48,758 nt of DNA from IMG/VR virus record IMGVR_UViG_3300031087_000003, one strand, 5' to 3'. Positions 3,392-48,758 of this stretch are shown one piece after another. Each line of letters begins with the position of its first letter. Within the stretch, counting starts at the first letter, position 1. The notes beneath the pieces are model-generated. The model was not told the DNA's origin and made no database searches. It worked only from the letters and a program-made list of their open reading frames with translations. The DNA is from a virus. The position numbers and the translations under genes are program-made.

Positions 3392-3421
3392 TAAACTTAA
3401 ACTTAAACTTAAACTTAAACT
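3392..3421. repeat. Hexanucleotide tandem repeat (TAAACT)x5
   Basis: Five perfect head-to-tail TAAACT units in the leader of the 3437 gene. Confidence 0.95.
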
Positions 3422-3436
3422 GAACAGGAAATTATT

Positions 3437-3901
3437 ATGAAAAAGCTAATTTTAGCAACGGTCTTTATGAGTAGTTCTTTTTCGGCGTTCTCCAGTTCTG
3501 ACTGGACATATGAAGAAAAATTGTCAACTGGTGATACATGTTTTTACATGCAGAATTCAGAAACAGGTCAACCTTTTTTGGCTTTAGGTAATGGTGTACC
3601 AGACAGTGTTGCAGAAGAATGTACCAATAATGGAAGTGGTGAAAGAGCAGAGAAAGAGTTTGCCAAGCACAGTCATCCACAATATGCGCCGCAGCCAAAG
3701 GATGAAAATTTTAATCGTGGACTCGACATTTACAATGCGTGTATTGCTGGTGCCAATGTAGATGGGGGTGCACTTGCTAAAATCGTCGGTAAATACAGCG
3801 GTAAACCTTCTGACATTAACAAAATCAGAAAGGCTTACAATTACGGTAGTGTAGTTGCTCGTGGTCCGCGTGACTGCACTAATTACACAATGGGTTACTA
3901 A
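3437..3901 (+). CDS. Secreted protein (Sec signal peptide), function unknown
   Basis: N-terminus MKKLILATVFMSSSFSAFSS is signal-peptide-like. The mature part contains several Cys. Confidence 0.7.
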   Translation: MKKLILATVFMSSSFSAFSSSDWTYEEKLSTGDTCFYMQNSETGQPFLALGNGVPDSVAEECTNNGSGERAEKEFAKHSHPQYAPQPKDENFNRGLDIYNACIAGANVDGGALAKIVGKYSGKPSDINKIRKAYNYGSVVARGPRDCTNYTMGY

Positions 3902-5349: not shown

Positions 5350-5865
5350 TCATTTCCCACAGCTTTTACATCTCCCGTTAGCTACATAGCGTTCTGACAT
5401 CTCGCCACAATGACGACATACCTCCAGTGGCATATACCATTTTTCACCCATTGCAATAGCCTGCTGACGCGGTGAAACCTGTGGAGGCCACGGTAACTTG
5501 CCAAGTGATATGTCCACCGCTTCACGACGTAATGCATCCGCTTTCTCCTGGGCGTCAGTTACCAGCTTGTCCGCCTGCTTCAGCATGGCTTCCACGTGGT
5601 CGGTGCGCGTCCTGATGACAGTTTTCTCGCGCAATTCTTCACGGTGCAAATCGCGTTCAACGAGACAGAAAACACATCTGTTACCACCGTCGCGGACGCC
5701 GGGATGACCGCACGCCTTGATGAAATTAGGTAGCCTGCGCCAGCCTCTTTCTTTCTGTTGCAGCCCATCAATGACCCGTTGCCAGACAGGGTTATCGCTT
5801 TTTTGAGTGGTGGTTAAAAGCTTGCCAAAATTATGCTGGTCACTCATTGCCTTTTCGTAATCCAT
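5350..5865 (-). CDS. Zinc-ribbon protein; candidate transcription regulator
   Basis: TAGGAG SD. C-terminal CRHCG-N12-CKSCG plus an internal C..CVFC. Divergent from the iteron region. Confidence 0.6.
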   Translation of the reverse strand: MDYEKAMSDQHNFGKLLTTTQKSDNPVWQRVIDGLQQKERGWRRLPNFIKACGHPGVRDGGNRCVFCLVERDLHREELREKTVIRTRTDHVEAMLKQADKLVTDAQEKADALRREAVDISLGKLPWPPQVSPRQQAIAMGEKWYMPLEVCRHCGEMSERYVANGRCKSCGK

Positions 5866-5930
5866 TAAATGCTCCTATATTGATTTATTACCTACAAATG
5901 TATTGTACACTTAAAAATTATACAAGGAAA

Positions 5931-6230
5931 TACCCCGGAGGTGGGGTAGTGTTTTTGCCATTTAAAACAACACTTTAGCACTAGCTTACCCGATACCCCG
6001 TATCTCAGGTACATTCCCCCTCTACTCTCTCTACAAATGTATTATATATATTTATATACATCTATAAACAGTCTATTACTATCTAACTTATATTTTATTG
6101 GGGTATTGAGGTAAAGAATAATAAGTAGTAGTAATATCAGTTAGTTAGGAATACCCCGGAGGGTCTACCCCGCACGATTTACTGTGGGGTGACATGGGTA
6201 AACTAGCGACGGCATTGATGCGTGTGGTAT
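5931..6230. promoter_or_regulatory. Iteron-rich regulatory region A (TACCCC/GGGGTA sites, AT-rich core, promoter-like 3' end)
   Basis: Sites at 5931, 5943, 5994, 6100, 6110, 6152, 6166, 6186 and 6196, then TAGCGAC-N17-TATCAT. Same architecture as 22026-22318. Confidence 0.7.
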
Positions 6231-6298
6231 CATGTGTTAAACGCACACATGTGGGGACTGCGGATATGTTCAACGAAGAGAATTGGGACGTCTGACAA

Positions 6299-6742
6299 AT
6301 GGCAAGAGCGAAACTTAACGAATACGGCGTGACCGAACAGCAGGAGAAATTCTGCCAAGCGTTCGTTGAGACGGGTAACGCTTCTGAGTCTTACCGCCGT
6401 GGATACAACACCGAAAATATGGCGGTTAATACAATCGCTAAACGTGCCTCTGAAATGCTCGATAACGGGGCAGTGGCGGGTAGAATTGCGACCCTCCGTG
6501 AAACCCATACCAAACGTCATGGCATCACCGTGGATACACTGCTGGAAAAACTTAACACTGTGTTCACTACGGCACTGGCTGCTGAAACACCGCAATCCTC
6601 TGCAGCTGTTGCAGCTGTGATGGGGCAGGCCAAACTGCTCGGTCTGGACAAACAACTCATCGAGATGTCAGGCAGCCTCAACGTAACCCTGTCAAATTCG
6701 CAACGTGCGGCCCTTGATAAGGCTTTAGACGATGAGTACTAG
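6299..6742 (+). CDS. terS: Terminase small subunit (Terminase_2-like)
   Basis: N-terminus LNEYGVTEQQEKFCQAFVETGNASESYRRGY matches the Terminase_2 signature as recalled. Immediately upstream of TerL. Confidence 0.8.
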   Translation: MARAKLNEYGVTEQQEKFCQAFVETGNASESYRRGYNTENMAVNTIAKRASEMLDNGAVAGRIATLRETHTKRHGITVDTLLEKLNTVFTTALAAETPQSSAAVAAVMGQAKLLGLDKQLIEMSGSLNVTLSNSQRAALDKALDDEY

Positions 6743-9955: not shown

Positions 9956-9998
9956 TCTTCAATCCTCTAAATTATGATATTATCTGACCAACGCACTC

Positions 9999-10027
9999 AA
10001 TATACCCTACTCTGACGGAACCGTCAA
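9999..10027 (-). promoter_or_regulatory. Sigma70-like promoter with palindromic operator (leftward)
   Basis: Minus strand reads TTGACG-gttc-CGTCAG-N7-TATATT. Confidence 0.65.
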
Positions 10028-12606: not shown

Positions 12607-13716
12607 ATGCAGATTACCGTACAAGACCGACAGACATATAAAATCACTCAACGTGAGTTTACGGATGAGGGATTCTTACGTGTACCGGGCAAAGTAGCGC
12701 GTACCGGTATTCAGCAATATCTGGCGTGTGAACTTGGCCTCGATGGGGACCCTAACCGTGTTATCAATGTGTATCGCCCTGAAGAGGAAGTGTTTGCTGC
12801 TGACTCTCTGGCATCATACGACAGCTCGGACATCACACTGCAACACCCTGACACACTGGTGGATAGCTCCAACTACTCCAGAACTGTCAAAGGTGTTGTA
12901 CGTGGTCCGGGTGTCCGTACCGATGATGACTGGGTACAGTGCAACCTCATCGTGAAAGCCAAAGATGCAGTTGATGCGATTATGGCTGGCACATGTGAAC
13001 TTTCTGCAGGCTATACCGCCACGTATGACGACACACCCGGTACCGCACCAGATGGTACGCCTTATCAGTTCCGTCAGACAAATATCCGAATCAATCACGT
13101 CGCAGTTGTGGACCGCGCCCGCGCTGGCTCTTCGGCACGTATTTTTGATACTAAAACCACTGGAGATAAAGCGATGCATCAAATCGTAACAGACACGGGG
13201 CGAGTCCTCGAAGTCGCTGATGCTGCCGTAGCAGATGCATTCGACCGCCTTAATAAGCGTGTCAGTGATGCAGAAGCTACCGCAACTAAAGCGCAGGCTA
13301 CCAACGATGGCTTACAGGCCAAAGTTGATGACCTTACCGGTAAACTGGAACAGGCTGTTATTGCTTCCAGCGATGAAGCAATTAAGCAACGTGTTGAGCA
13401 AATCGCACAGGTGCAGAGTAAAGCACGCAAAGTAGCTGGTGATACCTTCAGCTGCGACAGCGTGAATGCAACTGACATCATGCGTGCCGCCCTCGCCCTG
13501 CGTCATCCAAAGCGCGACTTTGCTGATAAATCTGCCGACTACGTTCAGGCTGCTTTCGATATGGCAGCTGATGAAGACGAAGAAGACAAGAAAGAGAGCA
13601 AAGACGCACAGTACACTCAGCTGGCGCAGGATGCTGCACGCGGTACTCAGCCTCAGCAGTCAGCCTATGACAAGTTTAAGCAACAGGTTTCCAATGCTCA
13701 CCGTGGGGGTAAATAA
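12607..13716 (+). CDS. Scaffold / prohead-protease-like protein (DUF2213-like)
   Basis: Internal Met at 12607 (MQITVQDRQ...). Coiled-coil, acidic C-terminus. Lies just upstream of the capsid genes. Confidence 0.65.
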   Translation: MQITVQDRQTYKITQREFTDEGFLRVPGKVARTGIQQYLACELGLDGDPNRVINVYRPEEEVFAADSLASYDSSDITLQHPDTLVDSSNYSRTVKGVVRGPGVRTDDDWVQCNLIVKAKDAVDAIMAGTCELSAGYTATYDDTPGTAPDGTPYQFRQTNIRINHVAVVDRARAGSSARIFDTKTTGDKAMHQIVTDTGRVLEVADAAVADAFDRLNKRVSDAEATATKAQATNDGLQAKVDDLTGKLEQAVIASSDEAIKQRVEQIAQVQSKARKVAGDTFSCDSVNATDIMRAALALRHPKRDFADKSADYVQAAFDMAADEDEEDKKESKDAQYTQLAQDAARGTQPQQSAYDKFKQQVSNAHRGGK

Positions 13717-16153: not shown

Positions 16154-16614
16154 TCGACATCCTTATCAGTGCTGGAATTTACTTCAGCTGGCGTTGGCTT
16201 GATGTATTCCGCATAAGCCAGTACATCAAGGTCTGACTTGGTGTAGTAATAATCGAAATCAGGATGCGAGCAGAGGTCATGCCAGCCGACCGGCCAGTAT
16301 GGCTCGCCATCTGGCGTATACATCTCGCAATCGTCCGATTCTTCATCAGGTTCTGGGCAATTGAAGAAGGTCAGGTCAGTCACGTGAACACTGCCAGCTT
16401 TCAGACGATGCGTTACCCAATACCGCTTGCTGGCGCCTTCAGGTATAGCCGGTTCTCCGGTGTGCCATATAGCAATTACGTGCTCCGCATCCAGCTTTTG
16501 CTGCAGGGCGGCGTAGTCATCGTATGCCACAAACTCGCCACCAGATTCCTCATGCATTTCCATGCTTGGCTCATAACGTTTTACTTCACTCATCTCACTA
16601 CACTCCTCACTCAT
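16150..16614 (-). CDS. Highly acidic hypothetical protein (154 aa)
   Basis: By my count about 35 Asp/Glu versus about 10 Lys/Arg. First gene after the promoter at 16628-16656. Confidence 0.6.
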   Translation of the reverse strand: MSEECSEMSEVKRYEPSMEMHEESGGEFVAYDDYAALQQKLDAEHVIAIWHTGEPAIPEGASKRYWVTHRLKAGSVHVTDLTFFNCPEPDEESDDCEMYTPDGEPYWPVGWHDLCSHPDFDYYYTKSDLDVLAYAEYIKPTPAEVNSSTDKDVE

Positions 16615-16627
16615 TTAATGTACCACT

Positions 16628-16656
16628 ACCCTACCCCACTCTGACGCACTCGTCAA
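16628..16656 (-). promoter_or_regulatory. Promoter-operator (leftward), member of the 50-bp repeat family
   Basis: Minus strand reads TTGACG-agtg-CGTCAG-agtgggg-TAGGGT. Confidence 0.6.
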
Positions 16657-16719
16657 CTACTATCCACACTCTTCACATTGTGCTATCCTTAACCGGTTAT
16701 CAACATGAGGAAACTACAA

Positions 16720-17485: not shown

Positions 17486-18062
17486 CGCCGGGGATTTTAC
17501 CGGCTGCGATGGCGTCGTAAATTAATTCAGCCTCATCCTTGGTGATATATGTTCCAATAGCATCTTCATTTCCAATCGCGGTGATGAACCTATCCCGCTT
17601 ACGTTCTGCTTCGGTGCGCGCCGCGTAAAAGGAAGAATCTTTAATAGAAATCATAAACTCTTCGTAGTCTTCACCCAGTGGTTCACCCTTCCAAGCAAAA
17701 ACCATATCAAAGCCTACACCGAGACAGGTTGCGGCTGTTCTGTGGGAACCATATTCAAATTTACAACCAACCGGCGGCAAACCTTCACCATTCCACACGG
17801 GCTGCTGCAGCGCTGCTTCATATTGTTCACGTGTGATAAAACCGTCTTCCCAGTCCACTTCGGATGTAATGTGTAGAACCTTCCATTCATCACATAAGGT
17901 ATTACCAGACGCATCAGTCCAACCACCAAAGTGACTAGTATGAGTTGGTAATTTTTCATGAGCACAAATGTTATTATTTTCATCATAACTAACAGCAGCC
18001 CATCCATTGTTCCATCCACCACGCTTTGGTAATTCCTGCACCAGTAAATCAATCAGTTTCAT
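17472..18062 (-). CDS. Hypothetical protein (196 aa); reverse-strand cassette
   Basis: Own promoter at 18096-18124. 3' end overlaps the adaptor gene by 14 nt. Confidence 0.65.
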
Positions 18063-18095
18063 GTGTATACCCTCTCACTCAGTTAATGTCCCATT

Positions 18096-18124
18096 ACCCT
18101 ACCCCACTTTGACGCATCCGTCAA
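18096..18124 (-). promoter_or_regulatory. Promoter-operator with perfect palindrome arms, member of the 50-bp repeat family
   Basis: TTGACG-catc-CGTCAA. Minus strand continues agtgggg-TAGGGT. Confidence 0.6.
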
Positions 18125-18210
18125 TACTTTTCCACTTCATCCGATTTAATCAGCAATACTAATGTGTTATGTTCAGGCTCGGGTTAATCCAACTTATCCG
18201 AGGTGTTACA

Positions 18211-19629
18211 ATGTCACTTTCCAAATATGAGCTACTTGTTGGCTCCAGTTCCTCCGATTTGCAAACCAAAGTCAGGGCTAAACAGGCTACCGGCAGCGTG
18301 ATTATTTACGGTATGTTTTACCGTGGTACATCTTACTGTCAGGCTGTAGGTACAGGCTCACTCGATGTGGGTACACTCACAGATTACCGCATTGTTTCAT
18401 CACCTAACGTTGACACATTCTCAACAATGGTTAGCGGAATGCTCGGTGAGGTACAACCGGTTGGCACGCCAGTTGTATACAACTCCTCACTGTTTCAGGT
18501 CATGGGAAAGGTTCAACCTTTTAACATGACCGGACAGAACGGTGCTAACGGTAAAACTCCTGAGATTCAGGTTGCGGATGGCAGTATCCAGTGGAAATAC
18601 ACGACCGACACAATGTGGCAAAACTTAATCTCGCTTAATGCTTTACAGGGTGCATCTGCCGATATGCGTGTGAGCAACAGCGCTATTCAGTGGAAACGCT
18701 CAACAGATACACAGTGGACGACACTCATCGGACTTGCCGACCTTGCCGGACCAGCGGGACCTACTGGCCCACAGGGACCTACTGGCAGCACTGGTCCGCA
18801 GGGTGTAGCTGGTCCAAAAGGTGAAACGGGTCCCGCCGGCGCAACTGGCGATACAGGTCCGCAAGGTCTTCCCGGACCAATGGGACCACAGGGTAATCCG
18901 GGCAACACCGGACCACAGGGACCAGTGGGTTCTACAGGTGCAATAGGCCCTGCTGGCCCACAAGGACCGCAGGGTAACATGGGGCCACAGGGTGTTCAGG
19001 GTCCGCAAGGTGAAGTTGGTCCAACCGGTCCAAAAGGTACGACGGGTGACGCCGGACCAGCAGGTGCGAAAGGCGCTACAGGAGATACCGGACCTGTCGG
19101 ACCAAAAGGTTCAACTGGTGACACAGGTCCGGCGGGTCCAACCGGCCCTACTGGTCCAAAGGGAGACGTTGGTAGCACAGGGCCTGTTGGACCAAAAGGA
19201 GATGCGGGACCGACAGGTAACACAGGTCCAGCTAATACACTGAGTGTGGGAACAGTCACAACAGGTGCTGCTGGTAGCAATGCTGCAGCTACAATCACGG
19301 GTACGGCTCCCGCACAAACGCTCAACCTGACCATCCCGCGTGGCAACACAGGCGTGGGCGCAGTGAGCGAGACAGTCAATGGTACGGTGGTGACAGCAGG
19401 CACAGCAGTAGCAGTTACGTTTGCTAAAACTTACAGCGCTGTACCAAATGTGGTTCCGGTAATTACCGGAGATGTAAACACAATTGTCATACCGATTATC
19501 GGTACTATCACACAGACGGGTTGCAGCGTGGTTGTGGCTCGCACACGTGGAACACTTCTGTTAACAACCGGACCTATCGAAGCGGCTCCAGCTGCAACAG
19601 CGTTCCGTATTGTGGTCACGGGTAACTGA
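18211..19629 (+). CDS. Collagen-like repeat fibre protein
   Basis: GAGGTG SD before the Met at 18211. About 54 uninterrupted G-X-Y triplets, preceded by two IQWK..TDT.W..LI.L..L.G repeats. Confidence 0.8.
18748..19233 (+). repeat. G-X-Y (collagen) triplet-repeat coding region
   Basis: [19 protein letters not shown]...GPTGNTGPA read from the translation. Confidence 0.9.
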
Positions 19630-21953: not shown

Positions 21954-21987
21954 CTCTCTCTAATCCTCATCATTTGCCAATGAGCTA

Positions 21988-22016
21988 AATATATATCCCA
22001 CTGACGCATTCGTCAA
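21988..22016 (-). promoter_or_regulatory. Sigma70-like promoter with palindromic operator (leftward)
   Basis: Minus strand reads TTGACG-aatg-CGTCAG-N7-TATATT. Confidence 0.65.
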
Positions 22017-22025
22017 CAACTATTT

Positions 22026-22318
22026 TACCCCGGTGTTCGGGGTACACATTTCCACATGGGAATCATCGACTTACAAACTTTTTACCAAATACCCCAGTCC
22101 TGCTACCTACTCCTCCCTGTAATCTTTATAAGTATGTATACATACATCCTATAAATACCATTCTATTACCAAGTATTATTCTTTAGGGGTATTAGGGGTA
22201 AAATATTATATATAATAAGAATATCAATAACTTATCCATACCCCACGACTTTACCCCACACCCAAATCGTTCGGGGTGGTTCGGGGTAAGTAGCGGCAAT
22301 TCTGCCCGTGTGGTATTA
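22026..22318. promoter_or_regulatory. Iteron-rich regulatory region B (homologous to 5931-6230)
   Basis: Sites at 22026, 22039, 22090, 22186, 22195, 22239, 22252, 22273 and 22283, then TAGCGGC-N17-TATTAT. Confidence 0.7.
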
Positions 22319-22338
22319 TCGCGACAGGAGGTGTACCA

Positions 22339-22842
22339 ATGGGCATTGTGATAAGAGATTTCCAGATTGCTAAGGCTGAACTTGAGCGCCATCTGCGCAG
22401 CTTCAGGGGAGGTCAGTTTGTGACGGTAGGCGTTCACGAAGATGCACCAATGCATCAGACAGATGGTGACGCTGTACCTATGGCACAGGTTGCCGCACTG
22501 AACAACTACGGAAATCCGCACAACAAGCTTAATGGTCGCCCTGCACCTGTCCCTGCCCGTCCGTTCCTCATTCCCGGCGTAGAATCTGCACAGCAGGACA
22601 TCAAGGACAGCGTGATTGAGTCTATTCAGAACGGTGCAACACTTGACCAGACGCTTAACGCTATTGGTGCATTTGCTGCTGGTGGCGTGCAGCAGTACAT
22701 GACTGACCTCAAAGAGCCACCTAACAGCGCCTACACAATCGAGCAGAAAGGGTCATCTAACCCACTCATCGATACCGGCGCGTTGCGTGCTAGCATCACG
22801 TGGAAGCTCACCAACTCTTTACCGGATGAGGGTATTTCATGA
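22339..22842 (+). CDS. Head-tail joining protein (HK97 gp10-like)
   Basis: AGGAGG SD. NPLIDTGALRASITW motif is typical of the gp10 family as recalled. Confidence 0.65.
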   Translation: MGIVIRDFQIAKAELERHLRSFRGGQFVTVGVHEDAPMHQTDGDAVPMAQVAALNNYGNPHNKLNGRPAPVPARPFLIPGVESAQQDIKDSVIESIQNGATLDQTLNAIGAFAAGGVQQYMTDLKEPPNSAYTIEQKGSSNPLIDTGALRASITWKLTNSLPDEGIS

Positions 22843-25366: not shown

Positions 25367-25580
25367 CAGTAAGTTTTAAAGATGGTAAAGGTCCCGCATA
25401 ACCGTAAATTTTTTCACGATATCGACAATCTGAACCAGGGTAACTCCAGTCACCAAACATCCATGTCAGTATGATTGTTTTTGCCGCCGGTACAGGAATG
25501 TCTGGATTGACCCAACAGATATATTTACCTTCTTGTTTGGGATTTCCAAAAACATCTATATCTATAAATTCTACGCTCAT
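25362..25580 (-). CDS. Hypothetical protein (72 aa); reverse-strand cassette
   Basis: GAGGAA SD. Own promoter at 25608-25636. Confidence 0.6.
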   Translation of the reverse strand: MSVEFIDIDVFGNPKQEGKYICWVNPDIPVPAAKTIILTWMFGDWSYPGSDCRYREKIYGYAGPLPSLKLTD

Positions 25581-25607
25581 ATCTGGTTCCTCAGTTAATG
25601 TCCTACT

Positions 25608-25636
25608 ACCCTACCCCACTTTGACGCACTCGTCAA
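25608..25636 (-). promoter_or_regulatory. Promoter-operator with perfect palindrome arms, member of the 50-bp repeat family
   Basis: TTGACG-cact-CGTCAA. Minus strand continues agtgggg-TAGGGT. Confidence 0.6.
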
Positions 25637-30085: not shown

Positions 30086-30109
30086 AAAAAAATGCCCCAT
30101 TTAAGGGGC
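30084..30109 (-). terminator. Intrinsic terminator oriented for the minus strand
   Basis: Minus strand reads GCCCC-ttaaat-GGGGC-A-TTTTTTTTT. The plus strand has no U-tract after the hairpin. Confidence 0.7.
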
Positions 30110-30389
30110 TAAAAGAGCAGCGGTCTTCAGGTATTACGCGTAATACACTTGATATTACTCCCGAGATTCTCTTAGAAAACCAAGGCTAGACATGAGTCTC
30201 ATCAAATGTACTACGCGTAATACTCCGGTCTCTTCCCGGATGCCAACGCTTGCCGCCAGAGTGCGTAACCTCTCATGAGGGACAACCCAAAACCCGGCTA
30301 CACATTACGTCATTCGTCACCGCGCTACAACGTGGCAAGGAGCTCCACAGCTAACGGTGTGACCCACATGTGATACATGGAAGACCATA
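30086..30389 (-). ncRNA. Candidate ~300-nt non-coding RNA, antisense to the late-operon spacer
   Basis: No ORF over ~27 codons on either strand. Bounded by the leftward promoter at 30396-30425 and the minus-strand terminator. Internal palindromes are present. Confidence 0.4.
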
Positions 30390-30395
30390 GGATAA

Positions 30396-30425
30396 ATCCT
30401 ATCTCACTTTTGACGTGACTGTCAA
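30396..30425 (-). promoter_or_regulatory. Degenerate promoter-operator (leftward)
   Basis: Minus strand reads TTGACA-gtca-CGTCAA-N8-TAGGAT (18-bp spacer). Confidence 0.45.
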
Positions 30426-30472
30426 CTGTCAATCCTGTATTATTTCAATATCGTTCCGCTGTTGGGGTTTCC

Positions 30473-36450: not shown

Positions 36451-36467
36451 AGCCGCACGAGGCGGCT
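36451..36467 (-). terminator. Hairpin after the polymerase C-terminal fragment (weak)
   Basis: AGCCGC-ctcgt-GCGGCT then TTTACC on the minus strand. Confidence 0.35.
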
Positions 36468-37119
36468 ATTTGAGGAGGGGTAAAACGAGTTTCTCTGCTT
36501 CAGCAATGTACCAGTCATAACATATCGCTGACCAGTCAAAGTCCTTAGCATCTGCACACTCTGTTACACGGTGACCGGCACAGATACCCGTCTCACGTAC
36601 TGCAGTGTGTTTACTACGTGATTTGGTGTGAATGCGTTCATCCCACGGTATACCAGCTGCATCTGTGTCACCGGGCTGTCCCGTAATCTCACGCATTACC
36701 GAATAGTAGTCATCATCCTTCACACCGTTCTTACGCTTCCACGTACCGGGCTGTCCGGTAGGCTGTAACAACTTAACGAGTGAACCACCTGTACGGCTGA
36801 TGAAGTACCGCGTGGTATTCTGCAATTCCTGCTCGGCACTCCATTCCGGCCAGCGCATAACAAGTGTCGCCGAACGTGGCACTTTAGCGCGTAACATGAA
36901 ATCGAACTGGTCGCGGTGAGAGGTGATAAAGCTGCGGATATCCTTACCGTGTACCAGTGCTGCTTCTGCTGCCATTGGTACAATCATTGCAGATGGGTCC
37001 TGATGATACTGGTATTTATATTCGTATGCTCCTTTCCTTTTAATTTTCATATTTCCAAGACTCCCTACTTGCGTGGTTGGGGTGATATCCAAAATCCTTT
37101 TCGGCTTTTTTTCTAACAC
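36466..37119 (-). CDS. Family-B DNA polymerase, C-terminal fragment (thumb; likely start at 37050)
   Basis: KIKRKGAYEY resembles the PolB KxY motif. GGGAG SD precedes the Met at 37050. Confidence 0.65.
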   Translation of the reverse strand: MLEKKPKRILDITPTTQVGSLGNMKIKRKGAYEYKYQYHQDPSAMIVPMAAEAALVHGKDIRSFITSHRDQFDFMLRAKVPRSATLVMRWPEWSAEQELQNTTRYFISRTGGSLVKLLQPTGQPGTWKRKNGVKDDDYYSVMREITGQPGDTDAAGIPWDERIHTKSRSKHTAVRETGICAGHRVTECADAKDFDWSAICYDWYIAEAEKLVLPLLK

Positions 37120-37585
37120 GTATCGCTTCTGATTTATCTTTGTAAGTTCCTAAGTCGTACCGAATGCCCTGATGAGAAATTCGTGCCAACCAATTATTAC
37201 CGTTTCGCGTTACTCCGCGACAGCCCGACGTATTATCCTTTCGTTCGCCTTGATTTCTTGAGTTTTCAAAAGCGTCGACTAAACGTAAATTAGAGTATCT
37301 GTTGTCTTTTCTGTCACCGTTGATATGGTCTATTTCACCATCTGGATGTTTGCCCGTTTCATGAAACCATGCGAGACGGTGAACGAGGAAATACAATCCG
37401 CGTATATTAACCCAGTAGTATCCGCGATTATTACTTTCAGTTATTGGTATATCACAGGGTTTACACTGTCCCTTGCTGAAGTATCGTTTGATTCTTCGCA
37501 TAACTCCTGTGGTTGGCTCATATGAGAAATGTTCCTTGAAATACAGAGTCGTCAGCTCTTCACGGTTTTTAAATTTCCATTGCAT
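37040..37585 (-). CDS. HNH-AP2 homing endonuclease inserted within the DNA polymerase gene
   Basis: DHINGDRKDNRYSNLR..ENSRN, then an AP2-like GVTRNGNNWLARI module. Paralog of 10787-11341. Confidence 0.85.
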   Translation of the reverse strand: MQWKFKNREELTTLYFKEHFSYEPTTGVMRRIKRYFSKGQCKPCDIPITESNNRGYYWVNIRGLYFLVHRLAWFHETGKHPDGEIDHINGDRKDNRYSNLRLVDAFENSRNQGERKDNTSGCRGVTRNGNNWLARISHQGIRYDLGTYKDKSEAIRVRKKAEKDFGYHPNHASRESWKYEN

Positions 37586-37636
37586 AATTTATACCATTGC
37601 GATTTGATTTATGACTACTATATCACTGAGAAAGGT

Positions 37637-39169
37637 TTAGTCAATAGTGATTAAATAATTGTTGACATCCCTCTGATACAGTGACTTGACGATGTCGGTT
37701 TCAAGCCCGAGCATTGTGTCACTTTCCCATTGCTCACTGATGGACTCAACCAAATTGTCATATATAGCTGGATAGTATATGACGGCGCCGTCAGTATTCG
37801 TTTGCGGTATAACAACATCTGGCACTTGAGCAAGCAATCTGTCCACCAACATAGCCAGACAAAGTTGTCCGGTAATGGTAATGCTCAATAGGCATTTGTG
37901 GTCGCAGAAAGGACTGTACTTACTGCCCATGTTGCCGAATGTCCCGTTAAGTGCCAGTTTCAACGTGGCATCGACAATCTTATCACCGGCTCGTTTTGCA
38001 TCGCGTCGCTTAAAGAAAAGCTGCTCATACACGTCACAGAATGTTTCTCCAAGGTGTTCCGGAAAATATCTGTTTTTGATACTTATTGAGGGGTACATGC
38101 TTGTGACATCTTTGTTCTTTAGTAAATATTCTTCAGATGAATGAAAGACACAGTTCGGAATTCCACTGTGGATACCTCCGAGGCCAAAAGAATATTCAAC
38201 ACCATCGACAACCACGCTCATGTCGTTAAAGACGCCTTTGGTGGTAAGTAGTTCATCCTGTTGTTTCTTACTGAGGACAACATTTCGCATGCGCTCCAGA
38301 ATCTGATTGAATTCGGGTCGCGCAAATTTGATGTAGGAAGGTATACAATCAGCAAGTTCAATACGTTCCCGAATTGTTGCACCAGAACAACGGACACCGG
38401 CTTTTTCCAGCTCATTTACGAAAATGTCTTTACCAATCTTCGTGTCCGCATGGTTCATGAAGTTCTTACCATACGTGGCGGTCAGTTCCTCACGGAAGGT
38501 AATCTTTTCCAGACAGCGCACATAAAACTTCAGCGTCTCGCGGACGTCGTGTTTGTTGTACTCAATCAGGATGTCCTTCTGTGCATCATCCAGTGTTGCG
38601 CCCACGGGGAATGGCAGGTCCTTAACGTTACGGGACTGCATGGCTACTTCCAGTGCCTTCAGACTGGTGCGACGTGCCTTGTTATCGAAGTGATTAATTT
38701 TGTAGAGGTCAATCTGCTGAAATACCTGTTCACGGTCCCACACCATGTTAGCCCAGCTATTTTCGTTGTTCGACTCGATAACCTGTTGTGCTTTGGCAAA
38801 GATTTGCTGTGGAGTAACACCCGCGTGTTGCTGAACCAGCCAGTGCATGATTGGATAGTCAAACTCAAGGTTGTTGAAGCCAATACCGCGTGCGCCAGAA
38901 CGTCCCATATTGTGCACCATATCGACAAGTGCCTGCCAGTCATTACGGCGGTCGGAAATCTCATACATGAGTTCCATACCGGTGGCGGCGTGGATAAAGC
39001 AGCACGTGAAGATGTTAGGAAATGTCTCTTCATCATATCCCCAGTCGCGACTGTCCAGTCCCGCTGGACTGGAAAAAGCACTGTCTGCCCCACAGTGTGG
39101 ACATTTGCTGAGGTCAGCAGGGTAGTTTTTCTGGCAAGTCATATCCTCGCATCTGGATAGGTAGTGCAT
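37637..39169 (-). CDS. Family-B DNA polymerase, N-terminal fragment (exonuclease and palm)
   Basis: ExoI YDEET, ExoII FNNLEFDYP, ExoIII YNKHD. Motif A DVTSMYPS, motif B KLALNGTFG, motif C TNTDG. Confidence 0.85.
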   Translation of the reverse strand: MHYLSRCEDMTCQKNYPADLSKCPHCGADSAFSSPAGLDSRDWGYDEETFPNIFTCCFIHAATGMELMYEISDRRNDWQALVDMVHNMGRSGARGIGFNNLEFDYPIMHWLVQQHAGVTPQQIFAKAQQVIESNNENSWANMVWDREQVFQQIDLYKINHFDNKARRTSLKALEVAMQSRNVKDLPFPVGATLDDAQKDILIEYNKHDVRETLKFYVRCLEKITFREELTATYGKNFMNHADTKIGKDIFVNELEKAGVRCSGATIRERIELADCIPSYIKFARPEFNQILERMRNVVLSKKQQDELLTTKGVFNDMSVVVDGVEYSFGLGGIHSGIPNCVFHSSEEYLLKNKDVTSMYPSISIKNRYFPEHLGETFCDVYEQLFFKRRDAKRAGDKIVDATLKLALNGTFGNMGSKYSPFCDHKCLLSITITGQLCLAMLVDRLLAQVPDVVIPQTNTDGAVIYYPAIYDNLVESISEQWESDTMLGLETDIVKSLYQRDVNNYLITID

Positions 39170-46950: not shown

Positions 46951-46979
46951 TTGACCACTCCGTCAACCCGTGCCATACT
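46951..46979 (+). promoter_or_regulatory. Promoter-operator in front of the TetR-like gene
   Basis: TTGACC-actc-CGTCAA-N7-CATACT. Confidence 0.6.
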
Positions 46980-47009: not shown

Positions 47010-47291
47010 ATGACCAAAGAACGAATTCTTGATGTGGCTTACGGTATGGCACTGACTGACGGCTTCAACTCACTGACACGCGATGGTGTGGCGAGTAAAG
47101 CAGGCGTGGCAATGGGTACGGTTAACCACAATTTCGGCACAATGGATGACCTGCGCAATGAGATTGTACGCCGTGCCATCGATGAGAAAGAACTGAGCAT
47201 TCTGGCACAGGCACTTGCGCAGCGTAACACTGTTGCTCTCACCGCTACCAAAGCGTTACAGTTAGAAGCACTGACCAGTCTCGCACAATAA
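47010..47291 (+). CDS. Stand-alone TetR-family N-terminal HTH domain protein (93 aa)
   Basis: ERILDVAYGMALTDGFNSLTRDGVASKAGVAMGTVNHNF matches the TetR_N pattern. No ligand-binding domain. Confidence 0.7.
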   Translation: MTKERILDVAYGMALTDGFNSLTRDGVASKAGVAMGTVNHNFGTMDDLRNEIVRRAIDEKELSILAQALAQRNTVALTATKALQLEALTSLAQ

Positions 47292-47308: not shown

Positions 47309-48758
47309 ATGAGCACAATCCCCTCAATCACGAGGGGTGACTTCGTTCACTCCAAATTTATCATTTGTAAGCTTGAACCACGTGGTGACCGTACCGAAAA
47401 GATGCCCTGCAATGCTCAGGGTATTGTAACCAGCCTCCACACGGCTGACCGTATGACTCTGGAACAGGCGCAGCAGACTGCAGCCGGACTGGGTCCGCAG
47501 TACCGTACCGGCGTTATCATTGACGGTGACGGACGCTGGTGCATTGATATTGATGGTGCGCTGCAAGCCGACAACACATGGTCACCGCTCGCCACCGAAC
47601 TGTGCCAGCAGTTTGCAGGGTGTTATGTGGAAGTGAGCCAGTCAGGTAAAGGTCTGCACATCTTTGGCTACAGTGCTTCAGTGCCTCCACACGCATCAAA
47701 GAACGTCCCGCTGCACATCGAACTCTATTCCGATAACCGCTTCATCTGCCTCGGCCAGCAGGGTAATGGCGACATGTTCCATGACGCCTCAGCGCCGCTC
47801 AATGCCGCTGTAGCGCGATACTTCCCGCAGACCGAACAGGGAACTGCAGCAGAATGGACAACCACTCATGTTGAGACATCCTGTCCGATTGCTGACGATG
47901 AGAAACTGATTGCAAAGGCGTGCGCATCTGCCAGTGCTGCAGGCGTTTTCGGCGCTCGCAGCAGCTTTAAAGACCTGTGGCAGGGTGATACAGACGCCTA
48001 CGATGGTGACGCATCCAGTGCTGATGCCGCACTTGCGCAACATCTCGCGTTTTGGACAGGTAACAACTGTGAGCGCATTGAGCGCCTGATGCGTAAGAGT
48101 GCGCTGGTGCGCGACAAATGGAATAACCACAAAAGTTACATGCAGCGCACCATTCTTGGCGCTGTGTCACGCCAGACCAACTGGTACAGCGTGGGTGCAC
48201 CCATTGAGACTGTACCGACCCGTCAGGTGGTGGAAGCTGCTGAGCCGGTCGTGCGTTCAGGCTTTCAGTTTATCGGTGGTACGCAGCTGGCCGAGGTGTT
48301 CCGCGGCTGCGTGTACGTGACCATTCCTAACAAAATTATGACGCCTGAAGGAACCCTGCTTAAGTCTGAGCAATTTAACGCCATTTACGGCGGCTACACC
48401 TTCACGCTGGATGACTCAAACGAGAAGACCACAAAGAAGGCGTGGGAGGCGTTTACCGAGTCACAGCTGTACAGCTTCAGCAAGGTACATGACATCATTT
48501 ACAACCCTGACTTACCCTTCGGCTCCATCATTACCGAAGAGGATGTGAAATATGTCAACGCCTTCCGACCTACAAATGACCCCGGCGTTGAGGGTGATAT
48601 CAGCCTGTTCCTGAACCACGTACGCAAACTTTACCCGCTGGACCATGACATCCTGCTGGACTGGTGTGCCACAAAGGTACAGAACCCCGGTAAATGCATG
48701 TTGTGGTCACCGGTCATTATCGGGCCGCCCGGTAACGGTAAGACAACCATTGCTGATG
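47309..48758 (+). CDS. Primase-helicase, N-terminal part (AEP primase-polymerase plus helix bundle); continues at 1-969
   Basis: AAGGG SD. IDIDG and SQSGKGLHIF are AEP motifs. No stop before the window end. Not in the ORF track because it is open-ended. Confidence 0.8.
   Translation, partial: MSTIPSITRGDFVHSKFIICKLEPRGDRTEKMPCNAQGIVTSLHTADRMTLEQAQQTAAGLGPQYRTGVIIDGDGRWCIDIDGALQADNTWSPLATELCQQFAGCYVEVSQSGKGLHIFGYSASVPPHASKNVPLHIELYSDNRFICLGQQGNGDMFHDASAPLNAAVARYFPQTEQGTAAEWTTTHVETSCPIADDEKLIAKACASASAAGVFGARSSFKDLWQGDTDAYDGDASSADAALAQHLAFWTGNNCERIERLMRKSALVRDKWNNHKSYMQRTILGAVSRQTNWYSVGAPIETVPTRQVVEAAEPVVRSGFQFIGGTQLAEVFRGCVYVTIPNKIMTPEGTLLKSEQFNAIYGGYTFTLDDSNEKTTKKAWEAFTESQLYSFSKVHDIIYNPDLPFGSIITEEDVKYVNAFRPTNDPGVEGDISLFLNHVRKLYPLDHDILLDWCATKVQNPGKCMLWSPVIIGPPGNGKTTIAD
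48632..48758. repeat. Second copy of the 127-bp terminal duplication
   Basis: Identical to 1-127. Confidence 0.95.

Follow-up and report, generated by a model that had tools for sequence, protein, structure and literature searches.

Two regions of about 300 bp in a phage genome (IMG/VR record IMGVR_UViG_3300031087_000003; the whole 48,758-nt stretch that was analysed is called here the window) each carry about nine copies of the motif aTACCCCGww, interrupted by AT-rich, flexible DNA and by one or two sites resembling those of the integration host factor (IHF). These regions, denoted array A (5931-6233) and array B (22026-22319), precede the packaging/head and the neck/tail operons, respectively. 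The explanation to which we give slightly better than even chances is that they are paralogous and that, as multi-site regions assisted by IHF and bound by a zinc-ribbon protein, they control the two main late promoters, and the pair would probably represent a late-gene switch not described before. Neither late-promoter arrays with many regulator sites, in phages, nor iteron origins are new as a type of element; in the literature searched, no description was found of this motif, of the twin layout or of the associated zinc-ribbon family.

The first piece of evidence is the arrangement of the sites themselves. A preliminary description of this DNA had listed nine TACCCC/GGGGTA sites in the same order in both regions, and this was fully borne out: in array A the sites start at 5931, 5943, 5994, 6100, 6110, 6152, 6166, 6186 and 6196, exactly as had been given, and are followed by TAGCGAC-N17-TATCAT, while those of array B follow in matching order at 22026, 22039, 22090, 22186, 22195, 22239, 22252, 22273 and 22283. 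Two details had to be amended, as the hexamer is only the core of a longer site, aTACCCCGww (142 sites), and the site at 5994, formerly taken as single, forms a doublet with a degenerate TTACCCG at 5986-5992. The similarity between the two regions exceeds that expected from AT-rich background, since the local alignment of 5866-6298 with 21954-22338 scores 65, compared to 21.4 +/- 2.8 for dinucleotide shuffles (z = 15.8) and to 18-25 for other intergenic gaps. TACCCC occurs 28 times in the window (14.6 +/- 3.4 in shuffles), with 14 of these occurrences falling inside the two regions, and the maximum number of sites per 350 nt reaches 10-12, against no more than 6 in mononucleotide shuffles. The two most AT-rich 80-nt windows of the genome are both found in the arrays (GC fraction 0.20 and 0.21, versus 0.487 overall). 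The notion of a single large imperfect palindrome was discarded, as the alignment of each array with its own reverse complement was not clearly above shuffles (copy A, z of about 2.5; copy B, z of about 1).

The window is considered to be a complete myovirus genome of about 48.6 kb, because its identical 127-nt ends (an exact direct repeat, 1-127 and 48632-48758) are read as the overlap of a circular assembly, which is the most likely origin of the repeat and makes it uninformative on the physical ends. Its nearest relatives in GenBank are Pantoea phage vB_PagM_AAM22, phage vB_KsaM-C1 and Klebsiella Jedunavirus phages such as BUCT_49532, Edwardsiella phage PEi21 (Yokohamavirus) being more distant. 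The site array, which had been proposed as a feature to look for in related phages, proved to be conserved: when five complete genomes were compared for the number and position of arrays, all five contained exactly two, one located 5' of terS and the other 5' of the neck gene, and the upstream regions of 13 further IMG/VR contigs presented a matching layout. A MAFFT alignment of 23 array copies revealed a conserved order of elements, consisting of the distal inverted pair, the doublet TtACCcnAnACCCCG, a pyrimidine tract, an AT-rich block that often carries an alternating palindrome of the GTATGTATACATAC type, the best-conserved block TTTTatagGGGTATtagGGtaAa, an AGTAGTA-like sequence, the element cAgtAAnTTa (matching the IHF consensus WATCARNNNNTTR in most lineages), atACCCCGaT together with one to three more sites, gTnGc as the weak -35 and, finally, tGTGgtAtnAT. 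The offset of the IHF-like site from the direct pair, +35, is constant in most lineages. Copies A and B of the same genome share an identity of 0.69-0.79, and orthologous copies between genomes one of 0.62-0.75; because in several genomes the former value is slightly above the latter, some homogenisation between the two copies is suggested.

A second piece of evidence comes from the promoter-like elements in which the arrays end. The lack of a canonical -35 for the rightward promoters was confirmed, as only the weak hexamers TAGCGA (A) and TAGCGG (B) are present. It can be added that both promoters possess a full TRTGn extended -10. Transcription is predicted to start at about 6240 from promoter A, leaving a 59-nt leader before the terS ATG at 6299, and at about 22326 from promoter B, with the neck gene ATG at 22339. 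Of the 23 copies, 21 have kept the -10 block tGTGgtAtnAT, preceded at 16-18 nt by a weak -35-like T[TGA]GC[TGA]A. Relative to the -10 hexamer, the site centres lie at about -30, -40, -59 and -72 (-29, -48 and -61 in Jedunavirus). Further upstream come the direct pair (-117/-126), the doublet (about -230) and the distal pair (about -285 to -295). The centre of the last site is placed -29 to -31 from the start of the -10 hexamer in 18 of 21 copies, that is, about -42 from the predicted start and abutting the weak -35; two outliers, at -18 and -40, are shifted by some 11 bp, or about one helical turn. This fixed distance, together with the weak -35, is, as far as spacing goes, the geometry of a class II activator. 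The earlier proposal of activator-dependent late promoters therefore stands in so far as both arrays end in a sigma-70-type extended -10 that points into terS or the neck gene and is kept in every relative examined, with a site abutting the weak -35 at a fixed distance; the dependence itself is presumed.

The left edge of array A is the mirror image of its right edge, as the predicted -35 of the divergent zinc-ribbon gene immediately abuts the distal GGGGTA site, read on the minus strand, and the left edge of copy A in KsaM-C1 shows the matching geometry (GGGGTA-TTTACT-N17-TATTAT). Two other promoter classes were discarded. A sigma-54 promoter is not supported, since in the copies examined the GG-to-GC spacing is 9, 10 or 13 instead of the invariant -24/-12 arrangement (TGGCAC-N5-TTGC), and a sigma-70 promoter within the conserved direct-pair block would lack a TAnnnT at a fixed column, the AAM22 lineage having none at all. 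The literature searched yielded nothing relevant on promoters, transcriptomes or other RNA of these phages (Jedunavirus, Yokohamavirus, AAM22 and KsaM-C1).

Some variation was observed downstream and within the arrays of the relatives. The sequence (C/T)GTGGTAT is repeated two to three times, 12-14 nt apart, downstream of terS-upstream arrays (KsaM-C1, L002, 25440-25475; L010; L012; PEi21, L025, 43260-43285) and is found once at neck-upstream copies; it may correspond to tandem extended -10 promoters or to another binding site. The neck-upstream arrays of PEi21 (12985-13295) and of contig L009 (1235-1500) have neither a -10 nor a -35, and only that of PEi21 is missing AT-rich block 1. In both, the last GGGGT may serve as a Shine-Dalgarno sequence, and the IHF-like motif reads ACTTGCA, giving a possible TTGCA -35.

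The candidate for a protein acting on the arrays is the 171-residue product of the gene divergent from array A, which contains a degenerate zinc-ribbon module at residues 52-67 and a full one at residues 150-169. Its C-terminus, CRHCGEMSERYVANGRCKSC, matches phrog_1081 (residues 133-169, E = 7.9e-6), a family without known function, and the profile of this family retrieves the protein of contig L079 with E = 3.1e-15; the pattern of the module, C...C-X2-C with a conserved R-Y-V-x-x-G, is recognised in the module alignment. In the AlphaFold2 model (mean predicted local distance difference test score, pLDDT, 81) two helices, 65-83 and 87-120, separate the modules. No significant match was found for the protein in the PDB, by sequence or by fold, nor for the module among Pfam and NCBIfam families. 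Members of the family are present in 79 GenBank phage records, and all those listed are hypothetical or unannotated except for two evident mis-annotations. As a homologue adjoins array A divergently in all five complete genomes, this genomic linkage makes the protein the candidate array-binding regulator.

Two other products of the window were considered as binders. The multiple helix-turn-helix protein encoded at 1802-2269 (155 residues with three helix-turn-helix-like repeats, phrog_323, 'transcriptional regulator, D5-like') was rejected, being absent from AAM22 and KsaM-C1. The TetR_N-like protein of 93 residues (47010-47291) is regarded as a less likely binder, fitting better with a 16-bp palindrome of the early promoters, TTGACG-N4-CGTCAA.

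Further information on the relationship between sites and modules was provided by viral contigs. A pattern scan of IMG/VR returned many chance matches, plus 52 loci with at least 7 sites per 400 nt; as these loci were recovered by an array-like pattern, the presence of an array in them is ascertained by the search, but its adjacency to a zinc-ribbon gene is not. The gene downstream of the array encodes terS in 25 cases, a zinc-ribbon protein in 14 and a neck protein in 12, the rest being singletons, and in the distant lineage L046 the same order of elements is followed by a good sigma-70 promoter (TTGACT-N17-GACAAT) and terS. In unrelated phage contigs, the genes immediately adjoining TACCCCG arrays encode non-nuclease zinc-ribbon proteins of at least seven different architectures, each carrying one to four modules (L079, L137, L135, L146, L096, the L047/L049 family and L031/L052/L142). 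In all, 32 of 36 distinct non-nuclease module proteins have at least four sites in the 600 nt upstream of their start, where about 0.8 would be expected from genome density, while those fused to HNH endonucleases have 0-2. The existence of such HNH fusions among the scanned loci supports the idea that the module binds DNA. However, the module alone does not predict an array, since the proteins of phages ep3 and SppYZU01, with an N-terminal module and a C-terminal half that looks HNH-like as read from unannotated open reading frames, have no array nearby.

Denser and nearly symmetrical TACCCCG arrays, with 18-23 sites, were observed in three phage contigs apparently unrelated to the window: L079 (4660-4990), L028 (12940-13390) and L137 (700-980). 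Their layout comprises a cluster, an IHF-like site, three direct repeats, an AT-rich/polypurine core and a mirrored second half. The array of L079 sits between a ParB-methylase/terS operon and an operon for the zinc-ribbon protein, a receiver domain and an excisionase-like protein.

All these observations could be integrated in the following model. What is established here is that the arrays exist and are conserved, how they are spaced from promoter-like elements, which genes follow them and that they are linked in the genome to zinc-ribbon genes; from this we infer binding of the heptamer by the zinc-ribbon protein, binding of IHF, an activating effect and its timing. The divergent promoter bordering array A on the left would direct synthesis of the 171-residue protein, which could dimerise through its long helix, with one heptamer being bound per zinc-ribbon module. 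IHF would bend the AT-rich DNA, and the bound proteins would fold the array into a higher-order complex, so that one of the bound modules would lie next to the weak -35, at about -42, and could aid RNA polymerase. Promoter A would drive terS, terL, portal and head genes, and promoter B the neck, tail and lysis genes, whereas the geometry of the left edge (GGGGTA abutting TTTCCT-N17-TACAAT) would lead to autoregulation of the regulator gene. Counted in favour of this model were the constant location of the arrays 5' of terS and of the neck gene, the site order kept across diverged lineages and the fixed offset of the IHF-like site.

Several facts do not sit easily with it. A TRTGn extended -10 with a near-consensus (5/6) hexamer may work without a -35 or an activator, so that the role of the array might be modulation or repression instead of activation. 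Extended -10 promoters without arrays are found at three other late-gene junctions (9973, 16679 and 18163), and conservation is highest at the direct pair, around -130, and lower at the proximal site. In copy B of PEi21 and in L009 the array is retained without a -10, with the start codon right after the last GGGGT and the adaptor gene directly 5' on the same strand, and a standard promoter could not be accommodated in L079 and L137, where the array runs up to the ribosome-binding site of the zinc-ribbon gene. The TetR_N-like protein is likewise conserved in all five genomes, so that the phyletic pattern by itself does not single out the zinc-ribbon protein. Lastly, the combination of iterons with an IHF site, a core very rich in AT and a neighbouring binder gene is equally the anatomy of an iteron-type origin.

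This last point leads to the alternative already left open in the preliminary description, namely that the arrays are replication origins, or an origin and a second cis-acting replication region, as in phage P4, which has two distant iteron regions (ori and crr). In that case an origin-binding protein, either the zinc-ribbon protein or the primase-helicase, would recognise the heptamers as its iterons, unwinding would take place in the AT-rich block, IHF would have an architectural role, and the pyrimidine tract might allow R-loop formation or priming; the adjacent promoters could be coupled to initiation. Repeated sites do lie beside an AT-rich region of this kind, since in both arrays the most AT-rich DNA of the genome is flanked by direct and inverted repeats, and IHF-like sites are present. 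Moreover, as in iteron plasmids, the gene for the candidate binder adjoins its sites, which are inverted at its promoter and directly repeated deeper in the array, and the array is kept without a promoter core in copy B of PEi21 and in L009. The minimum of the cumulative GC skew, at about 22-23 kb, could also be adduced, but the skew follows gene orientation and is therefore uninformative. What origin function does not need are two copies per genome, always at the start of late operons, in one orientation and with a fixed spacing from site to -10. In addition, no conserved DnaA box was seen (a single 8/9 match, in copy B only), the arrays are distant from the replication module (36-48 kb and 0-1 kb), with only the zinc-ribbon gene adjacent, and the candidate protein is as short as 81 residues in some lineages. 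Both the conservation of the promoter geometry and the occurrence of two copies, at operon starts, count against an origin, which is considered unlikely but is retained, possibly in combination with a promoter role. A broader proposal, in which TACCCCG arrays and modular zinc-ribbon proteins (one to four PHROG 1081 modules, one heptamer each) would form an unrecognised, widespread phage DNA-recognition system, acting here as an IHF-folded complex that is both origin and late-promoter switch and couples late transcription to replication initiation, appears doubtful to a still greater degree.

Two further explanations were judged to be very improbable. In P1 pac and lambda cosB, repeated short elements and IHF flank a cleavage region. 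Array A might accordingly be the terminase packaging site (pac), built in the same manner, with array B as a duplicate in a secondary role, and the clusters of short repeats around a central region, the IHF-like site and the location at the terminase gene (25 of the 52 arrays are immediately 5' of terS, in several lineages) are reminiscent of such sites. Nevertheless, in every genome a second and equally conserved copy precedes the neck gene, arrays are also found upstream of zinc-ribbon genes with no terS nearby, the repeats are unrelated to those of P1 or lambda, and adjacency to terS would be expected for a late promoter anyway, given that late operons commonly begin at this gene. The Jedunavirus relative IME346 is reported to have no fixed termini, which excludes cos-type ends in this phage (PMC9007800). 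Slightly less credible is that the inverted TACCCCG/CGGGGTA elements are not protein sites but RNA or DNA hairpins acting as leader structures, terminators, insulators or processing sites. The distal pair of copy A does look like a terminator on both strands, the proximal clusters can be folded into nested hairpins of -16 to -22 kcal/mol, and the proximal part must be transcribed in copy B of PEi21 and in L009. However, the paired elements are always the one heptamer, which occurs as direct repeats and single copies as well, loops range from 1 to 22 nt with inconsistent T-tails, folding z-scores are just -0.8 to -2.4, and the cluster is upstream of the predicted -10 in 21 of 23 copies. RNAalifold yielded 0 consensus pairs on the proximal cluster, and an Rfam scan of the whole window gave no match at the gathering threshold. 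A specific version, an intrinsic terminator at the distal pair, was rejected, as the T-tails vary among relatives.

If the arrays are late-promoter control regions, as is favoured here, their closest counterpart would be the early/late switch of phage phi29 (p4 and p6, promoters A2c/A2b/A3). There, a divergent region of a few hundred bp contains several sites for one small regulator, DNA bending is needed, a late promoter without a good -35 is helped by the adjacent regulator, and the complex also acts on the opposing promoter. The divergent early/late region, multiple sites and poor -35 have their likenesses in the arrays, where DNA bending is proposed. The differences are that the phi29 sites are CTTTTT-N15-AAAATG inverted repeats, that p4 is not a zinc-ribbon protein, that p6 takes the place of IHF and that there is one region per genome instead of two; PDB sequence and fold searches disclosed no relationship between p4 and the 171-residue protein. 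The activators of P2, 186 and P4 (Ogr, B and Delta) are similar in being small zinc-binding phage proteins that serve several sigma-70 late promoters without a good -35 by binding just upstream, as is proposed here. In contrast, instead of nine heptamers and IHF sites spread over 300 bp they recognise one TGT-N12-ACA dyad near -55, their cysteines are arranged as C-X2-C-X22-C-X4-C in a sequence unrelated to the PHROG 1081 module, and P2 has four late promoters with one site each. Iteron origins (lambda ori, R6K/pSC101/P1, P4 ori and crr) share the direct and inverted repeats of a short motif, the AT-rich region, the IHF site and the adjacent binder gene with inverted sites at its promoter, and differ from the arrays in lacking a promoter core at a fixed distance and a position before two late operons; the arrays have no DnaA box and the protein is unrelated. 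Finally, the succession of a site pair (about -130), an IHF-like site (about -100) and a promoter recalls the upstream activating sequence, IHF site and promoter of sigma-54 systems, but the promoter is not of the -24/-12 type and no AAA+ enhancer-binding protein is encoded.

Features of the two arrays and of the adjoining genes (positions in the window; +, plus strand; -, minus strand;., no strand assigned).
Feature	Position	Strand	Description
171-residue protein gene	5350..5865	-	Two zinc-ribbon modules joined by long helix; PHROG 1081; divergent from array A
Predicted leftward promoter of zinc-ribbon gene	5902..5930	-	-35 TTTCCT (5930-5925), 17 nt, -10 TACAAT (5907-5902)
Distal inverted pair A	5931..5948	.	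TACCCC-N6-GGGGTA; -285 to -295 from -10 in most relatives, spacing variable
Site doublet A	5986..6000	+	TTACCCG-A-TACCCCG; conserved block TtACCcnAnACCCCG
Pyrimidine tract A	6014..6034	+	TTCCCCCTCTACTCTCTCTAC; GC skew -0.5 to -0.75; CT-rich tract kept in relatives
AT-rich block 1 A	6035..6099	.	GC 0.16-0.22; most AT-rich 80 nt of genome; alternating TA/CA palindrome-like sequence
Direct pair A	6100..6113	-	GGGGTA-TT-GAGGTA; within best-conserved block of array, TTTTatagGGGTATtagGGtaAa
IHF-like site A	6135..6147	+	TATCAGTTAGTTA, matching WATCARNNNNTTR; inside AT-rich block 2
Proximal cluster A	6152..6200	.	TACCCCG 6152, TACCCCG 6166, GGGGT 6186, GGGTA 6196; centres -73, -59 and -40 from start of -10 hexamer, GGGTA 6196 at about -30 (read from sequence)
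Predicted late promoter A	6204..6233	+	Weak -35 TAGCGA (6204-6209), 18 nt, extended -10 TGTGG-TATCAT = TGTGGTATCAT (6223-6233)
terS	6299..6742	+	First gene of packaging/head operon after array A; homology to annotated terS of AAM22, KsaM-C1 and BUCT_49532
Leftward early promoter at left edge of array B	21988..22016	-	TTGACG-N17-TATATT; -35 within palindrome TGACGCATTCGTCAA
Distal inverted pair B	22026..22044	.	TACCCC-N7-GGGGTA; sequence
Site doublet B	22082..22096	+	Degenerate TTTACCA + TACCCCA; sequence, alignment
Pyrimidine tract and AT-rich block 1 B	22097..22185	.	Holds perfect palindrome GTATGTATACATAC
Direct pair B	22186..22200	-	GGGGTA-TTA-GGGGTA; sequence
IHF-like site B	22222..22234	+	TATCAATAACTTA, full match to WATCAANNNNTTR; pattern match
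Proximal cluster B	22239..22288	.	TACCCC 22239, TACCCC 22252, GGGGT 22273, GGGGTA 22283; centres -72, -59, -39, -29
Predicted late promoter B	22291..22319	+	Weak -35 TAGCGG, 17 nt, extended -10 TGTGG-TATTAT = TGTGGTATTAT (22309-22319)
Neck protein gene	22339..22842	+	First gene of neck/tail operon after array B

The genome is organised as plus-strand blocks of structural genes broken up by small minus-strand cassettes, with the replication genes at 36-48 kb and in the first kilobase of the window. Three repeats of 80 nt (16577-16656, 18045-18124 and 25557-25636; 63-75% identity to the reference copy) share a 5' leader and a promoter directed leftward, TTGACG-N17-TAGGGT, in which GGGGTAGGGTA lies at the -10. 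The preliminary description had connected this -10 with the array motif; GGGGTAGGGTA is indeed present at 16632, 18100 and 25612, with a variant at 10003, but GGGGTA is absent from this position in four relatives, and the link is probably incidental because it is not conserved.

The 16-bp palindrome TTGACG-N4-CGTCAA, whose geometry resembles that of the RutR site, overlaps the -35 and the spacer of consensus-like sigma-70 early promoters on both strands. It is located at 1001, 3330, 10013, 12585, 16642, 18109, 22002, 25621, 40997, 43316 and 45620, and at 46951 with one mismatch; allowing up to two mismatches, 44 matches were counted versus 16 expected. AAM22, KsaM-C1 and BUCT_49532 have 11-17 exact sites each, and PEi21 only 2. 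The palindrome is a likely operator for the conserved TetR_N-like protein. Extended -10 elements TATGATATTAT (9973-9983), TGTGCTATCCT (16679-16689) and TGTGTTATGTT (18163-18173) point rightward into late-gene blocks and stand back to back with leftward, palindrome-bearing early promoters. Given this disposition, a single palindrome-bound protein could repress the cassette promoter and influence the late one.

Some other features of the window were also noticed. An open reading frame inserted at 37040-37585 divides the DNA polymerase gene (36466-39169, minus strand) into 37637-39169 and 36466-37119, and the polymerase of BUCT_49532 is interrupted at the identical place by an annotated HNH endonuclease. 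The structural protein encoded at 18169-19629 contains long collagen-like Gly-X-Y repeats, as does AAM22 gp19 according to its annotation. A tandem hexamer repeat, (AAACTT)x5, lies at 3396-3425, just 5' of gene 3437-3901, whose product has a signal-peptide-like N-terminus. In the tail module, an unusually long non-coding gap (30086-30472) holds a 30-nt inverted repeat (30131-30160 / 30194-30223) that is 83% complementary and centred on GTATTACGCGTAATAC.

The array-bearing group includes Jedunavirus, the source of many Klebsiella pneumoniae phages isolated for therapy. If the favoured interpretation is correct, the late-gene switch of this group of phages would have been identified, and a DNA-binding function and a target would be assigned to an uncharacterised zinc-ribbon module that is also found in homing endonucleases and, in up to four tandem copies, in other proteins. 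The arrays would, in that case, provide compact and portable cis elements usable in phage engineering.

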